DNA of 64,000 nt from Alphaproteobacteria bacterium (GTDB lineage: Bacteria > Pseudomonadota > Alphaproteobacteria > UBA828): positions 768,001-832,000 of the forward strand of contig CAXXMU010000001.1 in assembly GCA_963667785.2 (NCBI GenBank), in the 5' to 3' direction. The translations under genes were made by a program, and so were the position numbers. Of this stretch, positions 6,788 through 41,003 are shown piece after piece (position 1 is the stretch's first letter; every line of letters begins with the position of its first letter). The notes below the pieces were generated by a model that did no database searches, was not told the origin of the DNA, and saw nothing but the letters and a program-made list of their open reading frames with translations.

Positions 6788-7573
6788 CTACCCCTCGAAG
6801 CGCACCTCGGCGCTGCCGATTGGGCCGAACTCGGCGGTCACCGTGTCGCCCGGCTTGCACTGCACCACGTCCGCCGCGCTGCCGGTGGTCACGACATGGC
6901 CGGCCTCCAGCGCGAGGCCGCGGGCGCTCAGATGGTTCGCGAGCCAGACCATGACGTTCCAGGGATCGCCGAGGACGTTGGCGCCCGCTCCCTCGCTCAC
7001 CACCTCGCCGTCGATCCGCACCACGACGGGCTGGCCGGCGAGATCGTGGGCGAGGCCATCCGCCGCCGGCGGCCCGAGGCAGAGCAGGCAGCCGATGGCG
7101 TTGTCGGCGATCAGGTCGTCCGCGCGCATGGAGAGCCAGTCCGCATAGCGTGAGTCCGGCACCTCGATGGCGGGGTGGACGCTGGCGACCGCCGCCTTCA
7201 CCTCCTCCAGCGTGTAGGGCGCGTCGCGGGGGCCGAGGGCGCGGGCCATGACGAAGTCGAACTCCGCCTCGATGGCGTGGAAGTTCACGCTGTTCGCCGG
7301 CACCGTCAGCGGGCTCTCGCCCACGAAGTCGGCGAAGAGGCGGCCCGAGAAGGGGGCGTCGACGCCGAAGCGCGCCTGCACCTGCGCGTTGGTGGCGCCG
7401 ATCTTGTAGCCGGCGATGCGCAGGCCTGCGCGCGCCGCGAGCCCGTCCTGCACCGCGTAGGCGTCTTCCATCGAGCCCGGCCGGCAGTCCGCCGGCAGCG
7501 CGTCGAGCTGCGCCCGGTCCTGCCACGCCTGCCAGAGCAGCGCGCCGCCGCGCGCCGCCGACTCACGATCCAT
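6788..7573 (-). CDS. 2-keto-4-pentenoate hydratase / fumarylacetoacetate hydrolase family protein
   Basis: AYAVQ, GYKIGAT, IEAEF, PAIEVPDSR, IADNA, VLGDP..WLAN and G.VVTTGS. Confidence 0.92.
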   Translation of the reverse strand: MDRESAARGGALLWQAWQDRAQLDALPADCRPGSMEDAYAVQDGLAARAGLRIAGYKIGATNAQVQARFGVDAPFSGRLFADFVGESPLTVPANSVNFHAIEAEFDFVMARALGPRDAPYTLEEVKAAVASVHPAIEVPDSRYADWLSMRADDLIADNAIGCLLCLGPPAADGLAHDLAGQPVVVRIDGEVVSEGAGANVLGDPWNVMVWLANHLSARGLALEAGHVVTTGSAADVVQCKPGDTVTAEFGPIGSAEVRFEG

Positions 7574-7618
7574 GCTCTCTCTCCCTGTCCTACTTGCCCG
7601 TCGTGCCGGTCCGCCCCG

Positions 7619-8371
7619 TCAGGCCGCCGAGCGCCGCGCGCCTGCGGTCTCGATCAGGCCGAGGAAGTTGCGGAAGAGCCGGGCGCCGTTGCCGCGCAGC
7701 GTCTCCTCCTCGCGCGCGGCGTCGGCGACCATGCGTGCGAACGCGCCTGCGCCCTGCTCCCGCTCCAGCGCGGCGATGTAGTCGGGGAAGGCCTCGGTCG
7801 CCCGCACCAGCGCCGCGTCCACCTCCATGTGGAACTGCACGCCGTAGGCCGCGCCGCCGAGGCGGAAGGCCTGCACGGCGCAGGCGTCGGACGAGGCAAG
7901 CAGCGCCGCGCCGGCCGGCAGCGCGCTGACCGCGTTCAGGTGCCACTGCATGGTGAGCGGGGTCGCCGGGAGCCCGGCGAAGAGCGGATCGGCGCGGCCC
8001 TCAGCCGTCAGCGAGAATTCCAGGATGCCGATCTCGGCCCGCGCCAGCGGCCCCACGGTGCCGCCGTGGGCGTCGGCCAGAAGCTGGCAGCCGAGGCAGA
8101 CGCCGAGCACCGGCAGCCCGCTCGCCACCGCGTCCCGCAGCAGCGCCTTCTCGGGCCCGAGCCAGGGATGGAGACGCTCCTCGTCCGCCTGCTGCGGGCC
8201 GCCCATGGCGAGCACGGCAGCGAAGCCCTCCGGCGACGACGGCAGCGGTTCGCCCCGCCAGGGATCGCAGGCACGCCAGGCGATGCCCGTCTCCTCCATC
8301 ACCTCGCCGAAGACACCCGGAACGTCGATCGCCGAATGCTGGAGGACGAGGACCGGAGCCGGCTGCGCCAT
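7619..8371 (-). CDS. type 1 glutamine amidotransferase (GMP-synthase-like stand-alone GATase)
   Basis: MGGP, LGVCLGCQLLA (nucleophile Cys) and YGVQFHME (His-x-Glu). Confidence 0.9.
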   Translation of the reverse strand: MAQPAPVLVLQHSAIDVPGVFGEVMEETGIAWRACDPWRGEPLPSSPEGFAAVLAMGGPQQADEERLHPWLGPEKALLRDAVASGLPVLGVCLGCQLLADAHGGTVGPLARAEIGILEFSLTAEGRADPLFAGLPATPLTMQWHLNAVSALPAGAALLASSDACAVQAFRLGGAAYGVQFHMEVDAALVRATEAFPDYIAALEREQGAGAFARMVADAAREEETLRGNGARLFRNFLGLIETAGARRSAA

Positions 8372-8374
8372 TCC

Positions 8375-9517
8375 CTACCAGAGCCGGTCCGAGGCCAGCG
8401 CCGCGCCCTCGGCGAGCGTGCGCAGCTTGGCGTAGCAGATCGCCGGGTCGATCTTGCCGAAGCCGGCGAAGGTGGCGAAGCCGCAATCGGCGCCGGCGAG
8501 CACGCGCTCGCGGCCGACGATGTCGGCGAAGCGGCAGATGCGCTCCGCCACCAGCCCCGGGTGCTCGACGAAGTTGGAGACCGAATCGATGACGCCGGGA
8601 ATCAGCACCTTGTCCTCGGGCACGCCGCGCTCGGCGAAGACGGACCATTCGTGGGCGTGGCGCGGGTTGGCGGCCTCGAAGGAAATCGCCTGCGGCTTCG
8701 CCTTCATCACCACGTCGTAGATGGCGCCGAGCTCGACGTCGCAGACATGGGGCCCCTCGTAGTTGCCCCAGCAGAGGTGGAGCCGCGCCGCCTCGGCGGG
8801 GATGGTCGCGAGCGCCGCGTTCAGTGCCTCCACCTGGCGTTCGGCGTGGGCGACGAAGGCGCTCTCGCTCTCGTCCGCGTACATGGTGTGGCGGCCCATG
8901 GCGAGGTCGGGGCAGTCGAGCTGGATCACGAAGCCCGCCGCGTGGATCGCCTCGTACTCGGCCCGCATCACCTCTGCGAGCGCCTCCAGGTAGGCGTCCT
9001 CGCCGGGGTAGTGGCGGTTCGGCTGGAACACCGAGATGACGCCCGGGGAGGCCGCGTTCATGAAGCCTTCCGCCGCGCCGGCGCCCTGGAGCGCCGCGGC
9101 CATGTTGGCGAGGTCCTTCTCCAGCGGCGCTTCATCCCTGATGCCGATCTCGCCCGTGCACATGGCGCGCTTGATCTTCGGCGTCTGGCCCTGGGCGGCG
9201 ATGCGCTGCACGTAGTCCGGGTAGAGCGCGAGGTCCGCCGGCACCCGGCGCGGGCTGTCGCCGGAGAAGCCGTGCAGCCGGTCCTTGATGTAGGTGGAAT
9301 AGCCGATCTTGCTCATCTCGCCGTCGGAGACGATGTCGACCCCGGCATCGACCTGCTGGCGCACCACGTCGGCCACGGCGCGCCTCATGCAGGCGTCGAA
9401 CGCACCCTGGTCGGCAAGCGTGCCGTCCTCCTTGGCGAGCAGCATGTCGGAGACGTCCGGCGGCCTGGGCAGGCTGCCGACATGGGTCGTGAGCACGCGC
9501 TCGGTGCTGAGCTTCAT
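8375..9517 (-). CDS. cobalamin-independent methionine synthase II family protein (C-terminal MetE-like / epoxyalkane:CoM transferase-like)
   Basis: TTHVGSLPRP, DIVSDGE, QLDCPDLA, Zn ligands in HLCWGNY and AGADCGF. ATG at 9517. Confidence 0.9.
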   Translation of the reverse strand: MKLSTERVLTTHVGSLPRPPDVSDMLLAKEDGTLADQGAFDACMRRAVADVVRQQVDAGVDIVSDGEMSKIGYSTYIKDRLHGFSGDSPRRVPADLALYPDYVQRIAAQGQTPKIKRAMCTGEIGIRDEAPLEKDLANMAAALQGAGAAEGFMNAASPGVISVFQPNRHYPGEDAYLEALAEVMRAEYEAIHAAGFVIQLDCPDLAMGRHTMYADESESAFVAHAERQVEALNAALATIPAEAARLHLCWGNYEGPHVCDVELGAIYDVVMKAKPQAISFEAANPRHAHEWSVFAERGVPEDKVLIPGVIDSVSNFVEHPGLVAERICRFADIVGRERVLAGADCGFATFAGFGKIDPAICYAKLRTLAEGAALASDRLW

Positions 9518-9701
9518 GCCGTCCCCCACCCCTCTCCGCAAGCGGAGAGGGCATACGTGGAATACCGCCGGACTATAGCGGATGGCCCCGCCCGCCGCGA
9601 CCTTGCAGCCCCCGCCGGCCCTCGTTCCCGCCCGCCGGTCTTGACCGGCATCCGGGGCAGGCGTAACCCGTCGCCAGCAACCGGCGGGATCGGGCAGCGA
9701 C

Positions 9702-26592: not shown

Positions 26593-26767
26593 CGCCATTC
26601 TTTCTCTTGCTACCCTCTTGGCATGACCGAGAGCGGGGGCTCCCACGGGTCTACACGGGAGCAGCCATGACATCACCCGGGGGTTGGCCTGTGAGGAGGG
26701 TGAGCCGGCGCCGCCCAAAGAGTTGCGGCGCCCTTGGCGGGTGGAGTTCGGTGGAATGGCGGCGCAA

Positions 26768-27442
26768 ATGACCCAAGTCCCCACCACACCCAAGGGCCGG
26801 CGCACGCGCAGCCGTCTCCTGGCGAGTGGCCGCAGAGTGCTGGCACGCAACGGCTATGTCGACCTCAAGATGGTCGACGTCGCCGAAGAGGCAGGGGTAT
26901 CGCTAGGCGCTCTTTATCGGTATTTCCACAACAAGGAGGATCTGTTCAGGGCCTTGGTCGACGGAATTCACGAGGCATTGTTCGAAGCGAGTCGAGCACC
27001 GAACAAGGAACTGGCGACCGACCCCAAGGGAGCCTTGCTTGAAGCAAACCTCGGCTATCTCTCGCTTTACAGCAAGAACCGCGACGTCATGCGCGCCCTT
27101 ATCGAGGCCTCCACGGTCGACGAGCGATTCCGTAGCGTCTGGTGGGCGATGCGCAACCGTCACATCGACCGCTTCGTGGGCGCCCTCAAGGCGAAGTGCG
27201 GAATAGAGGAGGTAGACGGCGTTCCGGCCCGCCTCGTTGCGGAAGCCATGGCCGCGATGGTCGAGCAATGCGCCTACGTCTGGTTTGCGCAGGAGGAGCA
27301 ACTGAACGAGCAGCCGGTCTCCGTCGACGACGCCGCAAGGGTGGTGACGCGGATATGGCACGACGCCTTCTTTGAGCCCGAAACACGCTCAGCCTCCGCA
27401 GCCGAAACTGGCCGGGCCAAGTCGTCAATCGAGGACCTGTGA
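26768..27442 (+). CDS. TetR/AcrR family regulator
   Basis: TRSRLL..GRRVL..GY....DVAEEAGVSLGALYRYFHNKEDLF HTH. Start at 26756 or 26768. Confidence 0.93.
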   Translation: MTQVPTTPKGRRTRSRLLASGRRVLARNGYVDLKMVDVAEEAGVSLGALYRYFHNKEDLFRALVDGIHEALFEASRAPNKELATDPKGALLEANLGYLSLYSKNRDVMRALIEASTVDERFRSVWWAMRNRHIDRFVGALKAKCGIEEVDGVPARLVAEAMAAMVEQCAYVWFAQEEQLNEQPVSVDDAARVVTRIWHDAFFEPETRSASAAETGRAKSSIEDL

Positions 27443-28424: not shown

Positions 28425-29165
28425 ATGAGACTGCTTGCGGTAGCGTTGGTTCTGGCGCTCTGCGCGGCGACGCCGACGCTCGCGACCGAGAAGCTGCGTA
28501 TCGCCACGACCGGCGGCTATCCGCCGTTCACCTATGTCGACGATGCCGGTGAGGTTGCAGGCTTCGACCTCGACATCGCGCGTGCGCTCTGCGCGGAACT
28601 CGGGGCCGAGTGTGAGGTCGTGCTGGAGGAATGGGAGCGGCTGATTCCGGAGCTGCGCGCCGGCAGCTTCGATGCCATCGCCGCCAGTATGTCGATTACC
28701 GAGAAGCGGCGCGAACTGGTGAGCTTCACGAACCGGTACTACAGCAACGTGGTCCGCTTCGTGGCGCGCAAGGGCTCCGACTTCGACCCGGCCGACGCGG
28801 CGGGCAGGACCATCGGCGCGGCCCGCGCCACGATCGCCTCCGACTGGCTCGAGGCGAACCTGGCCGGCACGGCGACCATCGAGCTCTATACCGGCCAGGA
28901 GGAGCTTTACCGGAACCTGGTCGCTGGTCGCCTGGATGCCATGTTCGGCGACGGCCTGGGCTCATACGCCTGGCTTGAGGGTCCGGAAGGTACCGGCTTC
29001 GAGTTCGTCGGCGAGGGATACAGACTGGACGAAGGCATCGGCATCGCCGTGCGCCACGAGGACGCCTCCCTTCTGTCGCGCCTGAACGGCGCCCTCGAGG
29101 CCATCCTCGCGAACGGTACCTACGAGCGGATCAACGCCCGCTACTTCCCGTTCAGCATCCACTAG
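28425..29165 (+). CDS. orphan polar amino acid ABC substrate-binding protein (HisJ/ArgT-like)
   Basis: Signal peptide, YPPFTY, GFDLDIARALC, SMSITEKR...V.FT.RYY and GIGIAVR. Confidence 0.92.
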   Translation: MRLLAVALVLALCAATPTLATEKLRIATTGGYPPFTYVDDAGEVAGFDLDIARALCAELGAECEVVLEEWERLIPELRAGSFDAIAASMSITEKRRELVSFTNRYYSNVVRFVARKGSDFDPADAAGRTIGAARATIASDWLEANLAGTATIELYTGQEELYRNLVAGRLDAMFGDGLGSYAWLEGPEGTGFEFVGEGYRLDEGIGIAVRHEDASLLSRLNGALEAILANGTYERINARYFPFSIH

Positions 29166-29323
29166 GCCGTGAGGTTATCGGCGCACGGCGGCGCTCGAGA
29201 GCCAGCGTTGCTCACCTGATGAGACTTGTCCCGCCTTCCGTTTCCCTCCGCTCCGAGTCCCCCTTGCAACCTGTCGTCGTTTTGGGGCTGGCCCCGCAGC
29301 ACCGAAGAGGGGCAGAGAATGCT

Positions 29324-29377
29324 TGACGAGCGGGCCAGGTTCTCGAATCGTAGAACATGACACACGTGTCAGGTTCT
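29324..29377. promoter_or_regulatory. tandem operator/promoter of the udg-GMC-NIPSNAP operon
   Basis: A degenerate site TGACGAGCGGGCCA at 29324 and a perfect TGACAC-AC-GTGTCA at 29358, extended by AGAAC/GTTCT. The sites are 34 bp apart. Confidence 0.75.
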
Positions 29378-29412
29378 CCCGTTTCGGGCAGGAGCGGACG
29401 GACGCCACGACC

Positions 29413-30261
29413 ATGCGACTGAGAGCGGCGCTGCACGAGACGCTCGACGGCTGGCACGGGGATATCGACCCTTCCTGGCGCGCTCTCGTGCACGACGTCG
29501 CGTTGGCCTTCGATGCGGTCGACGCCGCGCTCGAGCTGGAGCCGTGGGAGCCGATCTTTCCGGCCCGGCGGGGCAGGAGCCTGCCCGGCGCGCCGTCGGG
29601 CGCGCACATGCTGCGCGCCTTCGACGGGATCGCGCCGGAGAGCGTGCGCTGCGTGATCGTGGGCCAGGACCCCTATCCGTGCCCCGCGTTTGCGACCGGG
29701 CGGGCCTTCGAGGCGGGCAACGTCGCCCGCTGGCGGGAGCTCGACAAGATGTTCTCGCCGAGCGTCCGCGCGGTGATCCAGCTCGTCGTCGCGGAGCGCA
29801 CCGGCGCGGCACGCTACGCCGAGGGCTTCGCGCAGTGGCCGGAGACGCTGGCGGCCATCGAAGCGGGCGCGGTCGATCTGGAGGCGCCCGAGGCGCTGGC
29901 TGAGCGCTGGGTCGCCTCCGGCGCGCTTCTGCTCAACAGCTCGCTCACGCTCTCCCGCTTCCGCCGCGAGGGCGATCCCCATCAAGTGCGGGGCCATCTG
30001 CCGCTCTGGCGCCCCTTGCTGGTCCGGGTGCTCGATCTACTGGCGCGGCGGGGTACGCCCGTCGTCTTCATCGGCTTCGGCGACGCGGCCGCCGAGACGC
30101 TGGCTGCGGCGGGGCTTGGAGAGGCTGAACAACGCGCAGCGGGGCGCGTCATCCTCCGCCCGCACCCCGCCGCGGCCGACGAGATGCTCGCGCAGGAGAA
30201 CCCGCTCTCGCTCTGCAACCGTCGTCTGCGGGCCATGGGCGCGGCGCCGGTGGACTGGTAG
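29413..30261 (+). CDS. uracil-DNA glycosylase family-1-like protein (atypical)
   Basis: VIVGQDPYP, GRAF, SPS, GALLLNSSLT and VFIGFG. HPAAAD replaces the canonical HPSPLS. Confidence 0.85.
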   Translation: MRLRAALHETLDGWHGDIDPSWRALVHDVALAFDAVDAALELEPWEPIFPARRGRSLPGAPSGAHMLRAFDGIAPESVRCVIVGQDPYPCPAFATGRAFEAGNVARWRELDKMFSPSVRAVIQLVVAERTGAARYAEGFAQWPETLAAIEAGAVDLEAPEALAERWVASGALLLNSSLTLSRFRREGDPHQVRGHLPLWRPLLVRVLDLLARRGTPVVFIGFGDAAAETLAAAGLGEAEQRAAGRVILRPHPAAADEMLAQENPLSLCNRRLRAMGAAPVDW

Positions 30262-30264
30262 CCG

Positions 30265-31923
30265 ATGCCCCGCGAGCGCGCCTTCGACTACGTCATCGTC
30301 GGCGCCGGCTCCGCCGGTTGCGTGCTAGCGAACCGGCTGTCGGCCGATCCCGATTGCTCCGTTCTCCTCATCGAGGCCGGCGGCAGGGACCGCAATCCGC
30401 TCTTCCGTCTGCCCATGCTGATGGGCCGACTGTTCCAGTCCGGCATCTACAACTGGCGCTACCACACCGAGCCGGTGCCGAGCCTCGGCGGCCGCTCGCT
30501 CTATTGGCCGCGCGGCAAGGTGCTCGGCGGGTCTTCCACCATCAACGGCATGATCTACGTGCGCGGCAATCGCCACGACTATGATCGCTGGGCGCAGCTT
30601 GGGCTCGACGGCTGGTCGTACGAAGACGTGCTGCCGGCCTTTCTCCGCTCCGAGGGCCATGTGGAGCGCAGCGGCGCTCACCACGGCACCGGGGGAGAAC
30701 TCACCGTCTGCCGTGCGCGCGGCACCAATCCGCTCTTCGACGCGTTCGTCGAGGCGGGCCATCAGGCCGGCCATCCCGTCAACGACGACTTCAACGGGCC
30801 GGAGCAGCAGGGAATAGGCCGCTACGACTTCACCATCAGGCGGGGCAGGCGCTGCTCCACGTCGGCCGCCTTCCTGCACCCGATACGACATCGGCGCAAC
30901 TTGTCCATCGCCACCGGGAACCTCGTGCGCCGCGTGGTCGTCGACGGCGGCCGCGCGACGGGGGTCGAGATGGCGCGGGGCGGCGGCACGCGCACTGTCG
31001 GCGCGAGGCGCGAGGTCATCCTCTGCGCCGGCACCGTCAACTCGCCCCAGCTCCTGATGCTGTCCGGCATCGGGCCGGGCGACGCGCTGAGCCGGCACGG
31101 CATCCGGGTGGTCCACGAGCTTCCCGGCGTCGGCCGCAACCTGCAGGATCACGTGGACTGCGTTCTCTCGTACGCGTGCACGAAGCCGCTCACCCTCTAT
31201 CGCGAGCTCCGGGCCGACAGGATGATCCGTTCGGTGGCGGAGGGGATGCTGTTCGGCCGCGGCATCGCCACGACCTTTCCCTACGAGGCGGGCGCGTTCT
31301 TCAAGAGCCGGCCGGAACTGGTGGCGCCGGACATCCAGGTGCACTTCATGCCGGCGCTGGAAAGCACGGCGAGCCTGCATGTTCCCAACCCCTTCGGTAA
31401 GGCCGCGGCCGACGCCGGCCACGGCTTCGCGCTCCGCGTGGGTCCGCTCAATCCCGAGAGCCGGGGGTGGGTGGCTCTGCGCTCCGCCGATCCCGCCGAC
31501 GCGCCGCTGATCCAGCCCAACTATCTGCAGGACGACGCCGACTGCACGACGACGATCGCGGGCATCCGCATGGTCCGCGATGTGATCGCACAGCCGGCCT
31601 TCGACGCCTGTCGCGGCCCCGAGCTTGCGCCGGGCGATGCGCTACAGAGCGATACCGATCTCACCGCCTGGCTCCGTGCCAACGCCATGACGACCTTTCA
31701 TCCCGTCGGCACCTGCCGCATGGGCACCGACCCGATGGCGGTGGTGGACGCCCGGCTCGCCGTCCGCGGCATCGCCGGGCTCAGGGTCGCTGACGCCTCG
31801 GTCATGCCCGTCATCACGAGCGGCAACACCAACGCGCCCGCCATCATGATCGGCGAGAAGGCGGCCGAGTTCATACGGGGCGGGGCCGAACCTCAGGCGA
31901 CAGCCAAGGAGAGCGAGGAATGA
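30265..31923 (+). CDS. GMC family FAD oxidoreductase
   Basis: DYVIVGAGSAGCVLANRLS, PRGKVLGGSSTINGM, GRNLQDH, HPVGTCRMG and GNTNAP. Confidence 0.95.
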   Translation: MPRERAFDYVIVGAGSAGCVLANRLSADPDCSVLLIEAGGRDRNPLFRLPMLMGRLFQSGIYNWRYHTEPVPSLGGRSLYWPRGKVLGGSSTINGMIYVRGNRHDYDRWAQLGLDGWSYEDVLPAFLRSEGHVERSGAHHGTGGELTVCRARGTNPLFDAFVEAGHQAGHPVNDDFNGPEQQGIGRYDFTIRRGRRCSTSAAFLHPIRHRRNLSIATGNLVRRVVVDGGRATGVEMARGGGTRTVGARREVILCAGTVNSPQLLMLSGIGPGDALSRHGIRVVHELPGVGRNLQDHVDCVLSYACTKPLTLYRELRADRMIRSVAEGMLFGRGIATTFPYEAGAFFKSRPELVAPDIQVHFMPALESTASLHVPNPFGKAAADAGHGFALRVGPLNPESRGWVALRSADPADAPLIQPNYLQDDADCTTTIAGIRMVRDVIAQPAFDACRGPELAPGDALQSDTDLTAWLRANAMTTFHPVGTCRMGTDPMAVVDARLAVRGIAGLRVADASVMPVITSGNTNAPAIMIGEKAAEFIRGGAEPQATAKESEE

Positions 31924-32246
31924 TCGTCGAGCACAGGACCTACACCTTCCGCCCCGGCACGGTGGAGGGCTGGCTAGAGAAGTACGAGGCAGAGGGCCTG
32001 CCCATCCAGGAGCGCCATCTCGGACCCTTGGTCGGCGTCTACGTCTCCGAGATCGGCCGGCTGCACCGGGTCGTCCTGATCCGGGCCTACGAGAGCCTGG
32101 CGGATCGCGAGCGGCGCCGCGCCACGATGGGCGCCGACCCCGCGTGGCAGGCCTTCATCCAGTCGGTCTGGGCCCTCGACGCGATCCAGGAGCAGGACGT
32201 GATGGTCATGAACCCCGCGCCCTGCTCGCCGCCGCTCCGCGACTGA
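31920..32246 (+). CDS. NIPSNAP family protein
   Basis: IVEHRTYT.RPG, SEIGRL..V, YESLADRERRRA...ADPAW and PAPCSP. ATGA-coupled to the GMC gene. Confidence 0.88.
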   Translation: MIVEHRTYTFRPGTVEGWLEKYEAEGLPIQERHLGPLVGVYVSEIGRLHRVVLIRAYESLADRERRRATMGADPAWQAFIQSVWALDAIQEQDVMVMNPAPCSPPLRD

Positions 32247-32551
32247 ACGGCGCGACGCCGCGGGGCGTGCCCGCGCATCCGACCCGGCGGGTGTTGTTAA
32301 GCGCACCTTGTTGACCCCGCGCAGCCCAGCGAGATCAATGGATTAGCATGCCGATCGGCATCGAACCCCTGCGCCGGTCAACACGAATTTGGACGAAGCG
32401 ACAAACCTTCCACATAGTTCCCAAATAATGCGTGAAGGAATTCGCACCGGCGGCGTCATTCACTCGGCCCGCGTCTTCGGCTGCGGTGCGGGCTTCGCCG
32501 TCGTCGTCGGGCAGCCAAGGCCTTCCAGCGAGAGGAACTGGACCGCACTCA

Positions 32552-33211
32552 TTACGACGATGTGGAAGGGCTGCAGCATCCATCCAGGATGACCTTGGTC
32601 ATGGTCTCAGCCGCAGCGTCGAAGTCCGCCCTCGTGAGCCGTCGCCGCCCGAGCACGTCGGCGGCGAGCATCCCGAAGTCCGCGTAGAACTGGGTCGCGG
32701 ACCACAGCATGATGAAGAAGTGGCGCGGGTCCACCGGCGCCATGTGTCCCCGCCTGATCCATTCTTCCACCACGTGGGCGCGCTGGTCGGTGACCGCGCG
32801 GATATGCTGGCGCTGCCGCCGCTCCAAGAACTGCGCACCACGCAGGATCTCGTTGGCGAAGAAGCGGGATTCGGTGGCGTGGCGGCGCGAATACTCGAGC
32901 TTTGCGCGGATGTAGGCAGCGATCGCGTCGCGCGGTTCGCGCTCGGGCACGATGTGATCGAACGCGCGATCCCACCCCTCGATCAACCGCTCGATGACGG
33001 CAGAATAGATGCTCTCCTTGGTCGGGAAGTAGTAGTAGACGTTCGTCTTCGGCAGGCCGCAAACCCGCGCTATCTCCTTGACATGGGTGCCGTGAAAGCC
33101 CTTGTCGGCGAAAAGGCCGACGGCGGCGCGTAGGATTCTTTCCTCGTTCCTGGCGCGAATGCGGGGTGTCGACGGCTCCGCCTCTGCATCAGTCCGCACG
33201 CTCTTCGTCAT
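32552..33211 (-). CDS. RutR-like TetR family regulator
   Basis: IRARNEERILRAA..LFA.KGFHGT, GLPKTNVYYYF, YIRAKLEYSR....SRFFANEILRGA and WSATQFYADF (RutR-type C-terminal domain). Confidence 0.9.
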   Translation of the reverse strand: MTKSVRTDAEAEPSTPRIRARNEERILRAAVGLFADKGFHGTHVKEIARVCGLPKTNVYYYFPTKESIYSAVIERLIEGWDRAFDHIVPEREPRDAIAAYIRAKLEYSRRHATESRFFANEILRGAQFLERRQRQHIRAVTDQRAHVVEEWIRRGHMAPVDPRHFFIMLWSATQFYADFGMLAADVLGRRRLTRADFDAAAETMTKVILDGCCSPSTSS

Positions 33212-33299
33212 GGTCTTCCCTCGCGTTGCACGCCAACGAGGCCTTTCTGCGGCAGCCGCAGTCTAGCCCCGCATTCAGGCTGAGGGAGCAGAAAATACT

Positions 33300-33347
33300 T
33301 GACGCACGTGTCCACTTCCAAGACCGTAAAACATGACACGCGTGTCC
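33300..33347. promoter_or_regulatory. tandem operator/promoter between the TetR gene and the BMP ABC operon
   Basis: TGACGCACGTGTCC at 33300 and TGACACGCGTGTCC at 33334, 34 bp apart. The flanks are homologous to the 29.3 kb promoter. Confidence 0.75.
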
Positions 33348-33384
33348 AGTTTCGATGCAAGCGGGAGCCTGCGGACCCTATGCG

Positions 33385-33471
33385 ATGCAACTGAGGGCGG
33401 CGCTCCGGGAGACCCGAGAGGGCTGGTGGGAGGACATCCATCCGCCCTGGCGCGACGTCATCGGCGACTGA
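33385..33471 (+). pseudogene. 28-codon 5' stub of a second copy of the UDG-like gene
   Basis: MQLRAALRETREGWWEDIHPPWRDVIGD* versus the intact MRLRAALHETLDGWHGDIDPSWRALVHD, at nearly the same offset from the operator (51 vs 55 bp). Confidence 0.85.
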
Positions 33472-33548
33472 ACGGTCCGCCGACGGGGGCCCGCCCACGA
33501 ATGCAAGCCGGGCGCAGCGGGCGCCCGAGGGAGAGAAGGAGAAACGCC

Positions 33549-34622
33549 ATGTCGAACAAGCCGAACGCGATAGGTCCGGGCGCACCGTTCGCGCGCCTCA
33601 GCCGCCGCAGGTTCCTGGCGGCAACCGCCGGCATCTCCGCGGTCGTCGGTGCGAGTTCCGCGCTGCCCCTTGCCGCGCGCGCGGACGCGGGCCTTGTCGC
33701 CTTGGTTCACACCCAGGCGGCGGGCGACAGCGGCCCCATCGATTCCATGATGGGCCGGCTCGATCAGCTCTCGGAGGCGCAAGCCTTCGAGACCCGAAGC
33801 ATCTACGCCCAGGACCCGGCGACCTACGAGACCGTGCTGCGCACCCTCGGCGATGCGGGTGCCTCCATCGTGCTCGGGACCTTCCCGGTCATCTCCGAGG
33901 CCTTCAAGGCGGTGGCGCCGCTCTATCCCGACACCAGATGGATCCAGCTCTTCGGCGATGCCGTCGACCCGCCGATCGGGAATCTGGTGACGGTCTCCTA
34001 CGACTACTATCTCGGCTGCTACCTGTCGGGCATCTTCGCCGCCCACGTCTCGCAGTCGAAGCAGATCGGCTTCATCGGCGGCATCAGCATTCCGCCGATC
34101 AACGCCGACTTCAACGCGCTCGAGGCCGGTGTCCATGCGGTCGATCCGGAGGCCACCGTGACGGCCGCCTTTGCGGGCTCCTTCCAGGACCCGGCCAAGG
34201 GCTACGAGATCGCGAGCCAGATGTTCCTGGACGGGATCGACTACATCCAGACCGATTCCGCCGCGACCGACGGCGGCATCATCCAGGCGGCCAACGAGCG
34301 CGAGGGCGCCATGGTCAGCGCACTCGATCCGGCCCAGTACCCGCTGGGACCCGCCTCGGTGATCGGGGTGGTCAGCCTCGACTTCGGCCAGTCGCTCCAT
34401 AACGAGACCAGCGCGGCGCTCGCCGCCGACTGGCGGGGCGGGCGGCATGTGCCGACGGGCCTCGGCAGCGGTGTCATCGACTTCCTCCGCTCGCCCCTCT
34501 ATCGGGAGCAGGGGCCGGCGGCTATCGTCGCACGATCGGACGAGGCGTGGCCTGCGGTCGAAGCGGCGCGGGCGGGTATCCTCGACGGCTCGGTTTCGGT
34601 GCCGTTCAACACGGAGCTCTGA
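33549..34622 (+). CDS. BMP-family (nucleoside-type) ABC substrate-binding protein with Tat signal
   Basis: SRRRFLA twin-arginine signal, GD.G..DS, YLSG.FAA, IGFIGG..IP.I and AGSFQDPAKGYEIA. Confidence 0.88.
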   Translation: MSNKPNAIGPGAPFARLSRRRFLAATAGISAVVGASSALPLAARADAGLVALVHTQAAGDSGPIDSMMGRLDQLSEAQAFETRSIYAQDPATYETVLRTLGDAGASIVLGTFPVISEAFKAVAPLYPDTRWIQLFGDAVDPPIGNLVTVSYDYYLGCYLSGIFAAHVSQSKQIGFIGGISIPPINADFNALEAGVHAVDPEATVTAAFAGSFQDPAKGYEIASQMFLDGIDYIQTDSAATDGGIIQAANEREGAMVSALDPAQYPLGPASVIGVVSLDFGQSLHNETSAALAADWRGGRHVPTGLGSGVIDFLRSPLYREQGPAAIVARSDEAWPAVEAARAGILDGSVSVPFNTEL

Positions 34623-34717
34623 TCGCACGCCCTGACTAGGAGGCACACTCGGAACGGACGACCGCCGCGGACCCGCCGGCCCTCCATTGCCGCGGGATTC
34701 GCGTCACATACGGCGAG

Positions 34718-36238
34718 GTGACGGCGCTCGCCGACCTCGACATCGCCTTCGCGCGCGGCGCCATCCACGCCGTGGTCGGCCAGAACGGCGCCGGGAAGAC
34801 GACATTCGCCCGTGTCGCAGCCGGGCTCGTCCGTCCCGACGCGGGCTCGCTCGCCATCGACGGGCGTGCGCTACGCCTCGGCCGCGTCGCCGGCGCGCGC
34901 GCGGCTGGCGTCGAGCTTGTCCACCAGAGCTTCGCGCTGCCGCCCTCCTTCACCGTAGCGGAGGCGCTGGAATTCGGCGCTGGCGGCGGCATCGGCGTCT
35001 ACAGTCGACGCCGGCTCTTGAAGCGATGTCGTGAGCGCCTCGCGGCCCTCGATCTCGATGTCGATCCTCGGCGGCGCATCCGCGACCTGCCGGTCGAGGT
35101 CCAGCAGGGGGTGGAGATCGCCCGCGCGCTGGTCACCGATGCACGACTCCTGATTCTGGACGAGCCGACGGCGGTGCTGCCGCCCGCCGGCATCGAGGCG
35201 CTGTTCGAGCGTATCCGCAGCCTCAAGCGGCACGGGGTCACGGTCATCCTGATCCTGCACAAGATCCGCGAAGTGATGGCCGTGGCCGACACCATCTCCG
35301 TTCTGCGCGGCGGCAGGCTGGTCGCGGGACCCATCCCGCGCGAGCGGGCGGACGAGACGAGCATCGCCGAGATGATCGTCGGCCAGGCCGCGGTGGGTCC
35401 CGTCAGCGCCGACGATACCCAGGCGCTGGTCGGGGCGGCGCCAGTTCGGAGTGTGGCCGCTCGTCGCGTTCCCGTCGCGGCGTCGCCCGAGGTCGGCGAG
35501 ACGGTGCTCCAACTCGCGGACGTGAATACGGCGAAGGACCCGGAGGAACCGCCGCTGGATCGGGTCTCCCTTGCGGTCGGGCCGGGGGAGATTGTCGGCG
35601 TCGCCGGGGTTCAGGGCAACGGTCAGCGGACGCTGGTGAAGGCGATCACCGGCCTCGCCGATGTCACGGGCGGCGATATCTACCTGAACGGCAGCCGCGC
35701 GAGCCGTACCAGCGCCGCCAACCGCCGCGCGCTGGGCCTGCGCGTCATCCCCTTCGAGCGCAACAGCGAGGGCCTCAGCCTCACCAGCGCGCTGTGGGAG
35801 AACTGGTCCGTTCGCGACCTGATGCAACGGCCGCTGTTCAGTTTCGTCGACCCGGCCGCGCTGCGCCGGCGCTGCGACGAGGCGCTCGAGACCTGGGGCG
35901 TGCGCTATGCGTCCGCCACCCAGAACGCCGGCGCGCTCTCCGGCGGCAACGCGCAGAAGGTGATTCTCGCGCGCGAGATCGACGAAGACGCGCGTCTCAT
36001 CATCGCCGCGCAGCCCGCGCGCGGGCTCGATATCGGCGCCACCGCCTTCGTCTGGTCGGCGCTGCGCGAGGCAGCCGGGCGCGGCTGCGGCGTGCTGCTG
36101 ATCTCGTCCGATCTGGACGAGCTGTTCGACGTCAGCCACCGCTTGGTGGTCATGCTCTCGGGCCGCATCGTCGCCGAGTTCGTCCCGCCCTATGACATCG
36201 CTGCGGTGGGCCGCGCCATGACCGGGGCGTCCACATGA
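34718..36238 (+). CDS. nucleoside/sugar ABC ATPase with tandem NBDs; conserved N-terminus extends upstream to ~34649
   Basis: GQNGAGKTT, LILDEPTAVL, GVAGVQGNGQ, LSGGNAQK, QPARGLDIGA and ISSDLDEL. Confidence 0.92.
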   Translation: MTALADLDIAFARGAIHAVVGQNGAGKTTFARVAAGLVRPDAGSLAIDGRALRLGRVAGARAAGVELVHQSFALPPSFTVAEALEFGAGGGIGVYSRRRLLKRCRERLAALDLDVDPRRRIRDLPVEVQQGVEIARALVTDARLLILDEPTAVLPPAGIEALFERIRSLKRHGVTVILILHKIREVMAVADTISVLRGGRLVAGPIPRERADETSIAEMIVGQAAVGPVSADDTQALVGAAPVRSVAARRVPVAASPEVGETVLQLADVNTAKDPEEPPLDRVSLAVGPGEIVGVAGVQGNGQRTLVKAITGLADVTGGDIYLNGSRASRTSAANRRALGLRVIPFERNSEGLSLTSALWENWSVRDLMQRPLFSFVDPAALRRRCDEALETWGVRYASATQNAGALSGGNAQKVILAREIDEDARLIIAAQPARGLDIGATAFVWSALREAAGRGCGVLLISSDLDELFDVSHRLVVMLSGRIVAEFVPPYDIAAVGRAMTGAST

Positions 36239-37281
36239 GCGGCATCAGCATCCGCGCGGGCGCGGTCATCCGCACGCTCGCCTTCATCGTGCTCGCGCTC
36301 GCTCTCTGCGGCGTCGTCTTCGAGCTGGCCGGCTACTCGGCGCTTCTGATGCTCGAAAGCGTCGTCGAGGGCGCCTTCCTGCGCGCGGGCGGCTGGGCGC
36401 AGAGCCTGCGCTGGGCCCTGCCGCTCTTCATCACCGCGACCGGTGTCGCCATCTCGTTCCGCTGCGGCTTCTTCAATATCGGCGCGCAGGGCCAGTTCTA
36501 TGTGGGCGCCATCTGCGCTGCCTTCGTCGCCGATGTGCTCGGCGGTGCGCCTGCGGCCCTCGTGCTGCCGGCGACCTTCCTCGCCGGCATGGCGGGAGGC
36601 GCGCTGTGGGCGCTCTGGCCGGGATATCTCAGGCTTCGCTCCGGCACCGACGAGGTCATCACGACGCTGATGGGCAACTTCATCGCAGCCCTCGTGCTGG
36701 TCTACGTCACCTCGGGCCCGCTCAAGGACCCCTCCGGCACCGGCCAGCAGGCGGCGAGCCCGCTGCTGCCGGCGGTCTACCGCATCAGCGATTCCCAGGG
36801 CATCTCGCCTGCGATCATCGGCATCGCCGCCGCCGTCGCGCTCGCCATGTGGGTGCTGGTCAACCGCACGCCCTTCGGCATGCTGGCGAGCCTCGCCGGG
36901 CGCAACCCGACCATGGTGCGCTTTCAGGGGGCGCGCCTCTGGACCCTGGGCCTTTCGAGCTTCCTTATCAGCGGCGGACTGGCCGGGCTCGCCGGCACCA
37001 TCGAGCTGCTCGGCCCCACCGGGCGCATCGCGAGCGGCTTTCTACCCGGCCACGGCTTCACCGCGGTGCTGATCGCCCTGGTCGCCAACCTTTCGGTGCT
37101 CGCGACTGCCGTGGTCAGCATGTTCTTCGGCGGCCTTGCCTCGGCCGCGCTCTACCTGCCGATCCTGGCCGGACTGCCGGCCGCCGCCATCGACATCTTC
37201 AACGCCTCCGTCGCGCTCTTCATCACCGCGAAGTCGGGATTGCTGGATCGCCTCCTGCGCGCAGCGAGGCTCCCCACATGA
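36235..37281 (+). CDS. nucleoside ABC permease
   Basis: FRCGFFNIGAQGQ, DEVITTLMGNFIA, SGGLAGLAG and GHGFTAVLIAL. Confidence 0.9.
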   Translation: MSGISIRAGAVIRTLAFIVLALALCGVVFELAGYSALLMLESVVEGAFLRAGGWAQSLRWALPLFITATGVAISFRCGFFNIGAQGQFYVGAICAAFVADVLGGAPAALVLPATFLAGMAGGALWALWPGYLRLRSGTDEVITTLMGNFIAALVLVYVTSGPLKDPSGTGQQAASPLLPAVYRISDSQGISPAIIGIAAAVALAMWVLVNRTPFGMLASLAGRNPTMVRFQGARLWTLGLSSFLISGGLAGLAGTIELLGPTGRIASGFLPGHGFTAVLIALVANLSVLATAVVSMFFGGLASAALYLPILAGLPAAAIDIFNASVALFITAKSGLLDRLLRAARLPT

Positions 37282-38180
37282 CCGAGTTCCACGAGTTCAT
37301 GGTGGCGATCCTGCGCTCCGGCACGCCGCTGGTCTACGTCACCATGGCGGGCGTCATCGCGCAGCGGGCCGGCGTCTGGCATCTCGGCCTCGAGGGCGTG
37401 ATGATCATCGGCGCCTGCGCCACGATCCTCGGCATCGTCCTCACCGACTCGTTCCCGGCAGCCATCGCGATCGCCTGCGTGCTCTGCGTCGCCGCCTCGG
37501 TCCTGCTCTGGTTCGTGATTGAGAAGCTCGGCGCCAACCCCATCATCGCGGGCTTGGGCCTCACGGGGCTCGGGATCGGCGGGACGGCGCTCGCCGTCCA
37601 GGCCCTCTTCGGCAGCCTGGCGGCCGTGACCGCGCCCTTCGGCGTGCCCCGGCTCGGCGCGGCCTTTGGCCCCTACGGCGCGCTCTCGATCTTCGTCCTG
37701 ATGATGCCCGTCGTGGTCTGGGGCATGTGGGTGCTGCTGCGCCGCACGCGCTTCGGCCTGCGCCTCGCCGCTGCCGGCGAGCATCCGCTCGCGGCACGCA
37801 GCGTCGGCACCAGCCCGGCCCGCGCCAGGCTCATCGCGCTGGCGGCGGGCGGCGTCCTCTGCGCCATCGGCGGCGCCGAGCTCGCGGCCGGCGGCCTCAC
37901 GATCTTCGCGCAGAACATGACCGCGGGGCGCGGTTTCATGAGCTTCGCCGCCGTCATCTTCGGCGCGGCGCATCCCGTAGGGGCTGCCTTCGCGGCGCTG
38001 TTCTTCAGCCTGGTGGGCGTCGCGGGAATCAGGCTGCAGCTTCTCTTCGGCGCGAGCATCCCGCACGACGTGCTGCTCTCGCTCCCCTACATGGCGACGA
38101 TCCTCGGCGTCTGGATCAGCGGGCGGATGCGCGGCGGTGCCAAGGCCGCCACCGAAGCCTCGGAGCTCCGCGATTACTAG
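37278..38180 (+). CDS. nucleoside ABC permease
   Basis: TPL....G...QRAGV..LGLEG.M, RTRFGLRL.AAGEHP.AA.S.G, MTAGRGF and LPY. Confidence 0.9.
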   Translation: MTEFHEFMVAILRSGTPLVYVTMAGVIAQRAGVWHLGLEGVMIIGACATILGIVLTDSFPAAIAIACVLCVAASVLLWFVIEKLGANPIIAGLGLTGLGIGGTALAVQALFGSLAAVTAPFGVPRLGAAFGPYGALSIFVLMMPVVVWGMWVLLRRTRFGLRLAAAGEHPLAARSVGTSPARARLIALAAGGVLCAIGGAELAAGGLTIFAQNMTAGRGFMSFAAVIFGAAHPVGAAFAALFFSLVGVAGIRLQLLFGASIPHDVLLSLPYMATILGVWISGRMRGGAKAATEASELRDY

Positions 38181-39089: not shown

Positions 39090-40847
39090 TCATCGCACCC
39101 TGTCAATCGACGGCTCCACGCGGACGGTCACGATATCCGTATCGTGGTACTGCTGATGGCGGACCGACGAGGCCAGGTGACGCAGCAGCCGCAGCGAGAT
39201 CTCCCGCTCGATCATCGCGCCGGCGCTGGCCTCGCCCAGCAGCGCGAGCCGGTCCTGAATGTTCTCCTCGCCTTTCGAGGCGACGAACTCCAGCACCGCG
39301 CCGCCGTCCTCGCTGCGCGCCGTGAGGAGCAGCCGCCGCCGCTCCGTGTCCGCACCGGGCTCGTCCTGTCTCTGGAGCGTTAGCAGCGTCTCTTCGCAGA
39401 CGGCATCGAGGCGGTCCACCATCTGCGCATCCCAGCCTCTTCGCGACGCGAACGCGTCGATGAACGCCCGGATCTCGTGCAGGGCGGAGGGATCGAACGC
39501 CACCTCCAGCCGGCGGCGGCGCGGCTTCGTCAGCTCGACGAACATGGTCATGACGATCGCCGCGATGCCTCCGGTCAGCATCCCGTTCTTCAGGAAGCCG
39601 CCCGCGAACGCCGTGACATGCTCGGGAAAGATCGCCTCGCTCTGAAAGCCCACGCCGATCCAGAACGCGACCCCGGCGATCAGGCCTTTGCGGTAGTCGA
39701 TCCCGTCCTGAATGATCACCCTCATGCCGATGATGAAGATCGTCGCCATCGTGACGCCGACGAACGCCGTGATGACCGGCCCTGGTATCGCAAGGATCAC
39801 GGCAAGCGCCTTGGGAACGAATGCCAGCACGATGAACGCCGCTCCCAGCGCGATGCCGATGCGGCGGGAGCTGATCCCGGTAATCTCGACCATGGACGCA
39901 CCCGTCGGCCGGAAGCCGAGCGGCATCGTGCCCGCGAGGCCCGACAGCAGGTTGCCCGCCCCGTCAGCTGCCACGGCGCCCTGCACCGCCCGGAAGTCCA
40001 CGGCCCGGCTCTCGGCCCACGAGACGCGCTGGATCGCGACGGCGCCGCTGATGGTTTGAATCGTGCAGACCAGGGCGATGAACACGAAGGCGGGCAGCAG
40101 CGCCCAGAAGTCGGGCTCGAAGCGCAGGTCCAGGGCCGACCACTCGGGCGTCGGAATGCCGATCCACGACGCCTGGACGATGCGGTCGACGTCGTAGAGG
40201 CCGAACACGCCCGCGACGAACGAGCCCGCGACGATTCCGATGATCGGCGCCCAGAGGCGTACCCGTCCCTTTGCCGTCAGCGTGACCCCGACGATGACGA
40301 CCAGCGTCGCCGCTGCGCTGAGCGGGGCGGCTAGAGGCGGCGTGCCGCTCGGCACGTTCTTCAACTGGTCGAACATGACCGGCATGATCGTCACCGGAGT
40401 CAGCATGAGAACCGTCCCCGTGACGGTCGGCGTCAGGATGCGGCGGAACAGAGAGAGGCGCGCGGAGAAGACGAACTGGACCAGGGCGAGGGTGACGACC
40501 AGGGTCGCGAGCAACGCCGGGCCGCCGGCGGAGAGGGCGGCGATGCTGACCGCGATGGATGCCCCGGACGTTCCGATCGCGAGGATGTAGCCGGCGCCGA
40601 AGCGGCCGATGCGCCGCGCCTGGAGAATCGCGGTCACGCCGCAGAGCGCGACGGAGGCGAACACGGCCCACAGCAGGACGTCCTCGGGCTGGCCGGCCGC
40701 CCTGAACACGACCGTCGGAATCATCACCGCGCCCGGCAGGACAAGGCAGGCGATCTGCAAGGCGAGGCCCACACTGAGCGGGACCGGGATCTTCGCGTCG
40801 GGATGACGGCGGCTTCCGGAGCGCCGGTCGGACTCGTCGAGTCCCAT
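39090..40847 (-). CDS. NCS2 xanthine/uracil permease fused to a C-terminal RsbW/HATPase-like domain
   Basis: LALQ, TPTVTGTV, GAVAADG.GNLLSGL.G, ITG.SSR and IPGPV, followed by a ~140-aa soluble tail (IRAFI..F....GW....RL..VCEE...LRLLRHLASSVRH). Confidence 0.85.
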   Translation of the reverse strand: MGLDESDRRSGSRRHPDAKIPVPLSVGLALQIACLVLPGAVMIPTVVFRAAGQPEDVLLWAVFASVALCGVTAILQARRIGRFGAGYILAIGTSGASIAVSIAALSAGGPALLATLVVTLALVQFVFSARLSLFRRILTPTVTGTVLMLTPVTIMPVMFDQLKNVPSGTPPLAAPLSAAATLVVIVGVTLTAKGRVRLWAPIIGIVAGSFVAGVFGLYDVDRIVQASWIGIPTPEWSALDLRFEPDFWALLPAFVFIALVCTIQTISGAVAIQRVSWAESRAVDFRAVQGAVAADGAGNLLSGLAGTMPLGFRPTGASMVEITGISSRRIGIALGAAFIVLAFVPKALAVILAIPGPVITAFVGVTMATIFIIGMRVIIQDGIDYRKGLIAGVAFWIGVGFQSEAIFPEHVTAFAGGFLKNGMLTGGIAAIVMTMFVELTKPRRRRLEVAFDPSALHEIRAFIDAFASRRGWDAQMVDRLDAVCEETLLTLQRQDEPGADTERRRLLLTARSEDGGAVLEFVASKGEENIQDRLALLGEASAGAMIEREISLRLLRHLASSVRHQQYHDTDIVTVRVEPSIDRVR

Positions 40848-41003
40848 GTCCTGATCCCCGTTGCCTGCGGAGAGCGCGGCGACGACGGCTTCGCCGGTGC
40901 GTCGGGCGACCTCGACGGGCAGAACGCTGCTTTCCGAGGCATCCTCGCGCACGCGTTCGCCGCTCCCATTCAACGGCAAACGCGCGGGCCGCGCAAAGAA
41001 GCG

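Follow-up and report, generated by a model that had tools for sequence, protein, structure and literature searches.

A group of eight genes in a 64,000-nucleotide stretch of an alphaproteobacterial genome (assembly GCA_963667785.2, contig CAXXMU010000001.1, positions 768,001 to 832,000; the window hereafter) encodes a protein with the fold of uracil-DNA glycosylases (UDG; family 1, UNG), a GMC-type flavoprotein, a NIPSNAP-family protein, a RutR-like TetR repressor and a BMP-type ABC importer. With a probability of about one half, this locus is interpreted as a rearranged copy of a conserved catabolic divergon for a compound of the pyrimidine nucleoside type, the products of which would form a uracil-inducible pathway for the import of a pyrimidine (deoxy)nucleoside, cleavage of the uracil N-glycoside by the UNG fold and oxidation of the sugar part. 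A small-molecule rather than a DNA activity is what we infer for the UNG-like protein. It is proposed more tentatively, at somewhat less than even odds, that its family represents the first branch of the UDG superfamily engaged in small-molecule metabolism, as a cytoplasmic hydrolase of free uracil glycosides (e.g., 2'-deoxyuridine) that would work with the GMC and NIPSNAP proteins in a mobile route of (deoxy)nucleoside breakdown.

Gene order and its conservation

The features of the locus, the DNA of which has a G+C content of about 70%, are as follows (window coordinates and strand):

29309–29412, +, promoter/operator copy A, 5' of the UNG-like gene, with two TGAC-N6-GTCA boxes
29413–30261, +, UNG-like protein P0001 (282 residues), distinct family-1 UNG clade, with GQDPYP, LLLN and HP motifs
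30265–31923, +, GMC flavoprotein oxidoreductase (552 residues), choline-dehydrogenase-like, 3-bp gap after the UNG-like gene
31920–32246, +, NIPSNAP-family protein (108 residues), 4-bp overlap with the GMC gene
32552–33211, −, RutR-like TetR repressor (219 residues) with YcdC/RutR-type C-domain, divergent from the BMP-type ABC genes
33283–33384, +, promoter/operator copy B, with two TGAC-N6-GTCA boxes
33385–33471, +, 28-codon stub of a second UNG-like gene, ending in TGA, matching UNG-like residues 1–32
33459–33548, +, remnant of the canonical NIPSNAP-BMP spacer (84–86% identity to loci L009 and L014)
33549–34622, +, substrate-binding protein of the BMP/PnrA family, its twin-arginine signal visible as RRRFLA in the sequence
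34718–36238, +, ABC ATPase with two nucleotide-binding domains (PF00005, two stretches)
36235–37281, +, ABC permease 1 (BPD_transp_2, PF02653), 4-bp overlap with the ATPase gene
37278–38180, +, ABC permease 2 (BPD_transp_2, PF02653), 4-bp overlap with permease 1

An earlier note on this DNA had described the UNG-like, GMC and NIPSNAP genes as tightly coupled and the TetR gene as divergent from the BMP-type ABC operon; the 3-bp gap, the 4-bp overlap and the gene orientations in the window confirm both points. Public sponge-metagenome contigs span the junctions (X3, 30452–32714 and 32693–35000; X1, 32177–32659 and 33027–33620; pieces of X2), and since the NIPSNAP-TetR and TetR-stub-Bmp junctions are bridged by contigs from other runs, the layout is not an assembly chimera.

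Related loci (L numbers) were collected with one genome taken per species. A relative of P0001 with 53–92% identity was found at 73 loci, 72 of which hold a full UNG-like gene and one (L081) only a partial gene. The seven other window proteins were placed by tblastn and only loci of sufficient length were counted. Each partner was present and collinear in nearly all evaluable loci: TetR in 67 of 71, GMC in 69 of 72, NIPSNAP in 67 of 71, BMP in 66 of 69, the ATPase in 65 of 67 and each permease in 62 of 64. All seven partners were collinear with the UNG-like gene in 60 of the 64 fully evaluable loci, and synteny is conserved down to about 55% protein identity. The canonical form is a divergon in which a single operon (UNG-like-GMC-NIPSNAP-BMP-ATPase-permease-permease) lies opposite the TetR gene. 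That these genes belong together, and that UDG-like homologs co-occur with BMP-type ABC, GMC and RutR-like genes, as the earlier note had anticipated, is strongly borne out by this count.

The evaluable exceptions are L021 and L022, in which NIPSNAP was undetected at the thresholds used, L071, which holds only the TetR and UNG-like genes, and L079, which is devoid of the transporter. Among the loci that are not fully evaluable, L013 lacks GMC, L030 shows the UNG-like gene alone, and in L011 and L015 the TetR gene lies 6.1 kb upstream in the other orientation. No functional clue was found in the exceptional loci L071, L013, L030, L079 and L033 (10 open reading frames).

An unbiased clustering of all open reading frames at the loci revealed two further recurrent genes, both located directly after the second permease gene on the same strand. 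One encodes a pyrimidine nucleoside hydrolase of the RihA/UriH type (at least 22 of 72 loci), which scores best against the pyrimidine-specific RihA and the uridine-preferring UriH; the other encodes a TRZ/ATZ-type deaminase (a 545-residue amidohydrolase, at least 34 of 72 loci), with best matches to methylthioadenosine/S-adenosylhomocysteine deaminase, atrazine chlorohydrolase, triazine hydrolase and 8-oxoguanine deaminase. As some contigs stop short of these positions, both counts are minima. These additional genes at many loci suggest that ordinary pyrimidine nucleosides are imported.

Carriers occur among Alpha- and Betaproteobacteria, with one gammaproteobacterial metagenome-assembled genome (MAG), and include, by record title, Rhodospirillales-like MAGs, Mesorhizobium, Rhizobium, Hoeflea, Paracoccaceae and Variovorax. 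In the plasmid database PLSDB the cluster was found in 36 records (31 of Sinorhizobium meliloti, 3 of Ensifer, 1 of Variovorax and 1 of Azospirillum), 33 of which are typed as conjugative, and pSymA-type megaplasmids are among its carriers. In one GenBank record of S. meliloti pSymA the annotated order is TetR, then, divergently, uracil-DNA glycosylase, GMC, NIPSNAP, BMP, ABC, permeases, nucleoside hydrolase and amidohydrolase. The pSymA replicons vary by strain: the cluster is present in SM11, Rm41, BL225C and RU11/001, and pSymA of strain 1021 was not among the cluster matches in the plasmid collection searched. According to one report, S. meliloti AK21 uses 2-deoxy-D-ribose better than Rm1021 (PMC4468178). 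Among 400 other sampled genomes of the phylum a single one holds a family member (E ≤ 1e-20). In its distribution the cluster is a rare, mobile accessory element, and it appears to have spread horizontally.

The UNG-like protein and its partners

The UNG-like protein shares with family-1 UNG, including the unconventional enzyme of Nitratifractor salsuginis (PDB 5x3g), the fold, the G-Q-D-P-Y motif, the stacking Phe, the Asn of LLLN, the His-Pro motif and a C-terminal Trp. The AlphaFold model has a predicted local distance difference test score (pLDDT) of 95.9, and among the Foldseek PDB matches listed all are family-1 UNG (target-normalised template-modelling score, TMt, 0.63–0.75; 18–24% identity). 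Scores stay below the curated cut-offs, with 58.5 versus 185.75 bits for TIGR00628, 15.7 versus 24.3 bits for the Pfam UDG model and 45–66 bits for the ung equivalog models versus cut-offs of 143–237; the best direct match to a solved UNG has an E value of 4.3e-11. An exhaustive search retrieved 997 representatives at E ≤ 1e-3, of which 222 reach ≤ 1e-10 and 81 reach ≤ 1e-30; full-length matches with 30–50% identity are numerous among them, and the only protein atlas label is "uracil-DNA glycosylase family protein". A metagenome scan for distant relatives returned mostly canonical UNG and a single family member, L082. In a tree built by a quick search without bootstrap, a branch of length 0.63 (Shimodaira-Hasegawa-like approximate likelihood-ratio support, SH-aLRT, 94) separates the 61 family members from 44 canonical UNG-like sequences taken from metagenome loci (26 of the 70 extracted were omitted for size).

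A comparison of alignment columns between the same 61 and 44 sequences indicates which parts of the enzyme have been kept. The GQDPYP motif occupies residues 84–89 of P0001, and G-Q-D-P-Y is retained in both sets (family D 59/61, Y 58/61). The stacking Phe and the Asn of LLLN are present in 61/61 family and 44/44 canonical sequences, and His-Pro of motif B in 60/61 and 44/44. The S-P-L-S segment that follows His-Pro in canonical enzymes (S 44/44, P 43/44, L 31/44, S 42/44) is unconserved in the family, whose loop is one to several residues shorter. In UNG, H-P-S-P-L-S provides the minor-groove wedge through its Leu, and Ser/Pro loops pinch the phosphate backbone of the DNA. The prolines of the Pro-rich loop, present in canonical sequences, are likewise gone from the family, the following Ser-Leu being kept.

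The family also has elements of its own. Its members are about 50 residues longer than family-1 UNG, with an N-terminal segment bearing invariant Trp14, Trp22 and Pro50, about 20 extra residues before LLLN, and an insertion of 8–10 residues that contains Trp107 (Trp in 58/61) and is absent from 44/44 canonical sequences. Thr95, Arg97, Glu100 and Gly102 are specific to the family, canonical sequences having other residues at these positions. In an alignment of 60 members (A2), Gly84, Pro87, Thr95, Gly96, Phe99, Gly170, Asn175, His195, Trp199, Pro201, Gly223 and Trp282 are invariant in addition to the three N-terminal residues, and Asp86, Tyr88, Glu100, Ser117, His251 and Pro252 are nearly so. 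Median isoelectric points (6.99 for the 61 family members, 7.73 for the 44 canonical sequences) do not separate the two sets. Loss of the Ser in the Gly-Ser loop was rejected as a family trait because this Ser is unconserved in the canonical set too.

The pocket of UNG is built for 2'-deoxyuridine, and the Tyr of GQDPY excludes 5-substituted uracils. The pattern described above fits an enzyme that would have kept uracil N-glycosidase chemistry and remodelled its handling of DNA, as might be expected for a free uracil glycoside as substrate. The idea of a repurposed UDG fold advanced in the earlier note is plausible, as the uracil pocket is kept and the DNA wedge motif lost. The window genome (G000) contains a standard family-4 UDG (223 bits, cut-off 125.3) and no canonical family-1 ung over the cut-off. 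A Pfam examination of 10 longer family members found no informative fusion, one of them being a UNG-like/GMC C-terminal remnant. In another protein, P0129 (522 residues), UNG-like residues 4–154 (75% identical) are joined to a molybdopterin-cofactor-binding domain (PF20256), which may reflect a chimeric gene call or a rearranged locus.

The GMC enzyme contains both domains of its family (PF00732, 5e-57; PF05199, 2.4e-38). Its nearest solved relatives are an oxygen-dependent choline dehydrogenase (3.7e-140) and a chloramphenicol-oxidising enzyme (1.2e-120), followed by alcohol oxidases, choline oxidase and pyridoxine 4-oxidase (3.4e-80), with glucose oxidases far behind. The choline dehydrogenase BetA equivalog TIGR01810 is not reached (576.9 versus 732.1 bits) and only the broad choline-dehydrogenase subfamily model NF002550 is passed (665.7 versus 605 bits). 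The NIPSNAP domain (PF07978, 9e-29) covers the whole 108 residues, and its solved relatives are only structural-genomics entries without function. The importer has the parts of BMP/PnrA-type nucleoside ABC importers in their usual order (Bmp, PF02608, 1.9e-34; one double ATPase; two BPD_transp_2 permeases), but the window BMP protein is distant from its solved relatives (best E 5e-22) and carries a twin-arginine instead of a lipoprotein signal. These relatives are nucleoside- or base-binding lipoproteins, including by title riboflavin-, adenine- and atrazine-related binders, and the best NCBIfam matches of the transporter belong to the "putative B6 ABC transporter" set, all far under the cut-off.

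Operators, repressor and origin of the two-operon layout

The duplicated promoters with paired operators that had been pointed out in the earlier note are real. Region 29280–29520 aligns with 33260–33500 (69.5% identity over 177 bp by blastn), and the two boxes lie 34 bp apart in both copies, at 29324–29337 (one core mismatch) and 29358–29371 (exact) in copy A and at 33300–33313 and 33334–33347 (one core mismatch each) in copy B. Ten loose box pairs spaced 25–45 bp were found in a scan of the 4.09-Mb genome, and the 34-bp spacing occurs only at the two window promoters. In the divergent TetR/UNG-like spacers of relatives, with one mismatch allowed in the eight core letters, at least one box is present in 65/65 and at least two in 63/65, whereas shuffled spacers gave one box in 6/65 and two boxes in 0/65; the two boxes nearest the UNG-like gene keep the 34-bp spacing in 51 of 63 loci. 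The boxes of rhizobial loci resemble the E. coli RutR box, for which the consensus is of the TTGACCA-nn-TGGTCAA type, and the inner bases vary among clades. A promoter/terminator scan of 29100–33600 returned 0 sites of either kind.

The repressor combines a TetR_N domain (PF00440, 5.9e-14) with a YcdC-type C-domain (PF08362, 9.6e-42), as E. coli RutR does, and matches the solved structure of the latter with an E value of 7.6e-41 over 193 residues. The W-x3-Q-x-YADF segment, which lines the uracil pocket of RutR, is conserved, and both proteins are associated with palindromic operators having TGAC/GTCA arms. Unlike RutR, the window repressor controls no rut genes here, is associated with two boxes per promoter and falls under the RutR equivalog cut-offs (TIGR03613, 172.9 versus 368 bits; NF011584, 151.3 versus 230 bits), and for this last reason it is named RutR-like and not RutR. 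The regulation by a RutR-like TetR that the earlier note had suggested is supported at the level of sequence, by the repressor itself and by conserved operators that resemble the RutR box. Outside the window, two exact TGAC-N6-GTCA boxes 812 bp apart occur in the same genome (C1:409830 and C1:410642); their inner bases look more like the classical RutR box than those of the window boxes do, and they could belong to the regulon of an additional repressor that is a true RutR.

The region between the TetR and Bmp genes preserves traces of the origin of the layout. The stub open reading frame (33385–33471) is 50% identical to UNG-like residues 1–32, and region 33212–33548 is a mosaic: its bases 71–256 match the promoter and first UNG-like codons of relatives (87% to L015 in the coding part, 75% to L010) and its bases 248–337 match their NIPSNAP-Bmp spacer (86% to L014, 84% to L009), with a deletion junction near 33459–33467. 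This junction is the scar of an internal deletion in which a UNG-like gene from codon 29 onward was lost, and with it the accompanying GMC and NIPSNAP genes. The stub is closer to the copies of other species than to the intact gene 4 kb upstream, so that the promoter copies derive from two diverged clusters and not from a recent local duplication. Homology to the spacers of relatives begins only near 29309 on the 5' side of the intact UNG-like gene, a copy that has retained its boxes and lost its own TetR.

A second cluster copy has thus lost its three enzyme genes, its repressor, promoter copy and 28-codon stub now driving the transporter, and this deletion-derived transporter unit stands directly 3' of the intact enzyme trio. 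The two-operon layout described in the earlier note is a derived local accident of this deletion and not how the system is built, the canonical form being the single operon. The related claim that the stub records an ancestral promoter common to the UNG-like gene and the transporter holds, as both belong to a single operon in relatives.

Multiple copies are also found elsewhere. A sister MAG carries two full clusters (L009 and L010), and on contig C11 (L004) of the window genome there is another intact trio, 74% identical, behind a LysR gene and without a transporter, which indicates that the three enzymes are a fixed core. That contig (1–11803) carries the trio at 6788–9627 after the LysR gene, with genes for an FAD oxidoreductase, a family-III CoA-transferase and a 4Fe-4S protein before LysR and for a UvrD-like helicase after the trio; as it measures only 11.8 kb and the bin has a contamination of 6.6%, it may belong to a related strain.

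Several neighbouring features complete the description of the window. A gene of the NCS2 xanthine/uracil permease family (39090–40979, −; PF00860; 164.8 bits with the pbuX model, under its cut-off) lies 0.9 kb 3' of the ABC operon on the opposite strand, so that another nucleobase transporter adjoins the cluster. Upstream are a second TetR gene with an EthR-type C-domain (26684–27442, +) and a family-3 solute-binding protein gene (28425–29165, +), neither of which has a counterpart at related loci. Between the convergent genes for NIPSNAP and TetR lies a non-coding spacer of 305 bp (32247–32551), of which 84 bp match L011 (79%), with a weaker match on contig C6 of the same genome; this spacer might represent a small repeat at the rearrangement breakpoint.

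Proposed pathway, alternatives and relation to known systems

The proposed pathway would operate as follows. The RutR-type repressor would bind two RutR-box-like operators per promoter and be released by uracil or a close analogue, and the BMP-type ABC system, judged from its family, would import the substrate. The UNG-derived protein would most likely cleave a free uracil glycoside hydrolytically at its N-glycosidic bond. The best single guess for this glycoside is 2'-deoxyuridine, or else a uracil nucleoside resistant to ribonucleoside hydrolases; uracil would then be both product and inducer. The GMC flavoenzyme and the NIPSNAP protein would oxidise and isomerise the sugar part; either the released sugar would be oxidised or, just as conceivably, the 5'-CH2OH of the nucleoside would be oxidised before base cleavage.

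Pyrimidine nucleosides or bases are suggested as the compound class by the importer family, the RutR-like repressor and the optional RihA-like hydrolase and deaminase taken together. The RihA family requires the hydroxyls of ribose, so that the RihA-like enzyme and the UNG-like protein would have separate roles in the 22 loci where the two occur together. The preference for a deoxy sugar is due to this requirement, to the fit of 2'-deoxyuridine to the UNG pocket and to the window genome (98% complete), in which neither a deoA-type phosphorylase nor deoC was seen, an absence that lends weak support. An oxidative route for free deoxyribose, which hydrolytic cleavage would yield, exists in some bacteria, as documented for Pseudomonas simiae (PMC6365646). 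The UNG-like gene has moreover the attributes of an accessory function rather than core repair: it is under a TetR repressor, duplicated in the genome, located on conjugative plasmids in most of its PLSDB records and rare, and has a family-4 UDG beside it.

A number of observations weigh against this proposal. The loci are akin and their retrieval relied on the UNG-like gene, which means that they do not count as independent events, and L082, a more distant member (42% identical), has none of the cluster neighbours. All the catalytic and uracil-specific residues of a DNA glycosylase are retained, as is the Ser-Leu of the Pro-rich loop (S 56/61), and activity on DNA is thus conceivable. The GMC enzyme has its nearest solved relatives among enzymes that act on primary alcohols and not on anomeric carbons, a poor fit to the oxidation of a sugar to a lactone, and no lactonase is found in the cluster. 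BMP proteins bind free bases and other heterocycles as well, so that the cargo need not be a nucleoside. Finally, deoC is present in 4/5 and a pyrimidine-nucleoside phosphorylase in 3/5 of the other carriers; for this reason the idea that the module replaces the classical deo route was rejected.

The retained active site gives some weight to a rival explanation, rated unlikely, in which the protein is still a DNA uracil glycosylase, co-induced with pyrimidine uptake so that the chromosome is guarded against a rise in dUTP caused by imported uracil or deoxyuridine, the GMC and NIPSNAP chemistry on the imported compound being unrelated. Conservation of the catalytic Asp and His and of the uracil-specific Asn, Phe and Tyr, the Ser-Leu just mentioned, the exclusively UNG structural matches among those listed and the lack of a canonical family-1 ung over the cut-off are all consistent with it, and in a solved structure human UNG with the wedge Leu changed to Ala remains bound to abasic DNA (title of 2ssp). 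This explanation is opposed by the loss of the S-P-L-S wedge with shortening of its loop, by conserved insertions absent from every canonical sequence compared, by scores under the curated ung and Pfam UDG cut-offs and by the family-4 UDG of the genome, as well as by the genetic context of the UNG-like gene, which is the fixed first gene of a catabolic operon (60/64 loci), duplicated in one genome, plasmid-borne and strain-variable. The cargo might instead be another N-heterocycle (vitamin-B6-like, triazine-like or pterin-like) to which the UNG-like pocket has drifted. The B6 transporter models, although far under their cut-offs, the atrazine-binding protein among the solved BMP relatives, the likeness of the optional amidohydrolase to triazine hydrolases and atrazine chlorohydrolase, and pyridoxine 4-oxidase among the GMC relatives would agree with such a cargo, yet it is considered improbable, as conservation extends to all five residues of the uracil pocket, the repressor resembles RutR and shares its W/Q/YADF segment, and the optional nucleoside hydrolase resembles pyrimidine- and uridine-directed enzymes.

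Still less support is found for the substrate suggested in the earlier note, a 5-hydroxymethyl-pyrimidine nucleoside that would be imported and cleaved by the UNG fold, with oxidation of the hydroxymethyl group of the base by the GMC enzyme. The oxidation of primary alcohols by the closest solved GMC relatives would suit this chemistry and the deaminase found at 34 of 72 loci could turn a cytosine form into a uracil form, but the Tyr that blocks 5-substituted uracils in UNG is kept in 58/61 members, neither a decarboxylase nor a hydroxylase of the kind known from thymine salvage was observed at the 72 loci, and the RihA-like hydrolase suggests ordinary pyrimidine ribonucleosides; this substrate is accordingly disfavoured and regarded as quite improbable. 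The least probable of the alternatives considered, and a very unlikely one, is that the trio acts on the free base, the UNG fold binding or hydrating uracil and the GMC enzyme oxidising it towards barbiturate, as a molybdenum-independent entry to oxidative pyrimidine degradation. RihA-bearing loci already have an N-glycosidase, both free uracil and barbiturate can occupy the pocket of UNG (titles of 4wpl and 8i63), and the window genome and its close relative G401 carry a gene of the barbiturase/cyanuric-acid-hydrolase family (in the former G000:C6:888035-889105, −; PF09663, 458 bits). This gene is absent, however, from 4/5 of the other carriers, which disfavours the route, and the conservation of the catalytic Asp and His is a glycosidase requirement; moreover, we know of no precedent for such a route. 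Hydrolysis of a free uracil glycoside is preferred to these alternatives as the simplest mechanism, in which the chemistry of UNG would stay the same and only the carrier of the uracil would differ.

Compared with known systems, the cluster joins a familiar type of regulation and transport to unfamiliar enzymes: a TetR-controlled operon for nucleoside utilisation is of a known kind, whereas the enzyme module is unprecedented. Catabolism through RihA/UriH follows the same logic (import, glycosidic cleavage, use of base and sugar), and a RihA-like gene ends the operon in the loci mentioned above, but the constant glycosidase candidate has the UDG and not the IUNH fold, and the flavin oxidase and the NIPSNAP protein have no role in the known route. 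The deoxyribose pathway of P. simiae is a precedent for oxidising, and not phosphorylating, free deoxyribose; unlike the cluster, it includes no GMC enzyme in the part of the source available (PMC6365646). Family-1 UNG are encoded by stand-alone repair genes, in contrast to the UNG-like gene, which heads a TetR-controlled catabolic operon. Searches of one full-text library found no description of the cluster or of a UDG with a substrate other than DNA.

All characterised members of the UDG superfamily act, to our knowledge, on DNA. If the proposal is true, this family would clearly exemplify the recruitment of a repair fold for catabolism and would supply nucleoside breakdown with a hydrolytic or oxidative route that has been missing. 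It would also provide the first enzymatic context and function for bacterial NIPSNAP proteins, as well as a function for one of the many unassigned choline-dehydrogenase-like GMC enzymes. The current annotations "uracil-DNA glycosylase" and "choline dehydrogenase" are probably misleading for these genes. S. meliloti strains with and without the cluster represent natural plus and minus backgrounds in a culturable and tractable host.

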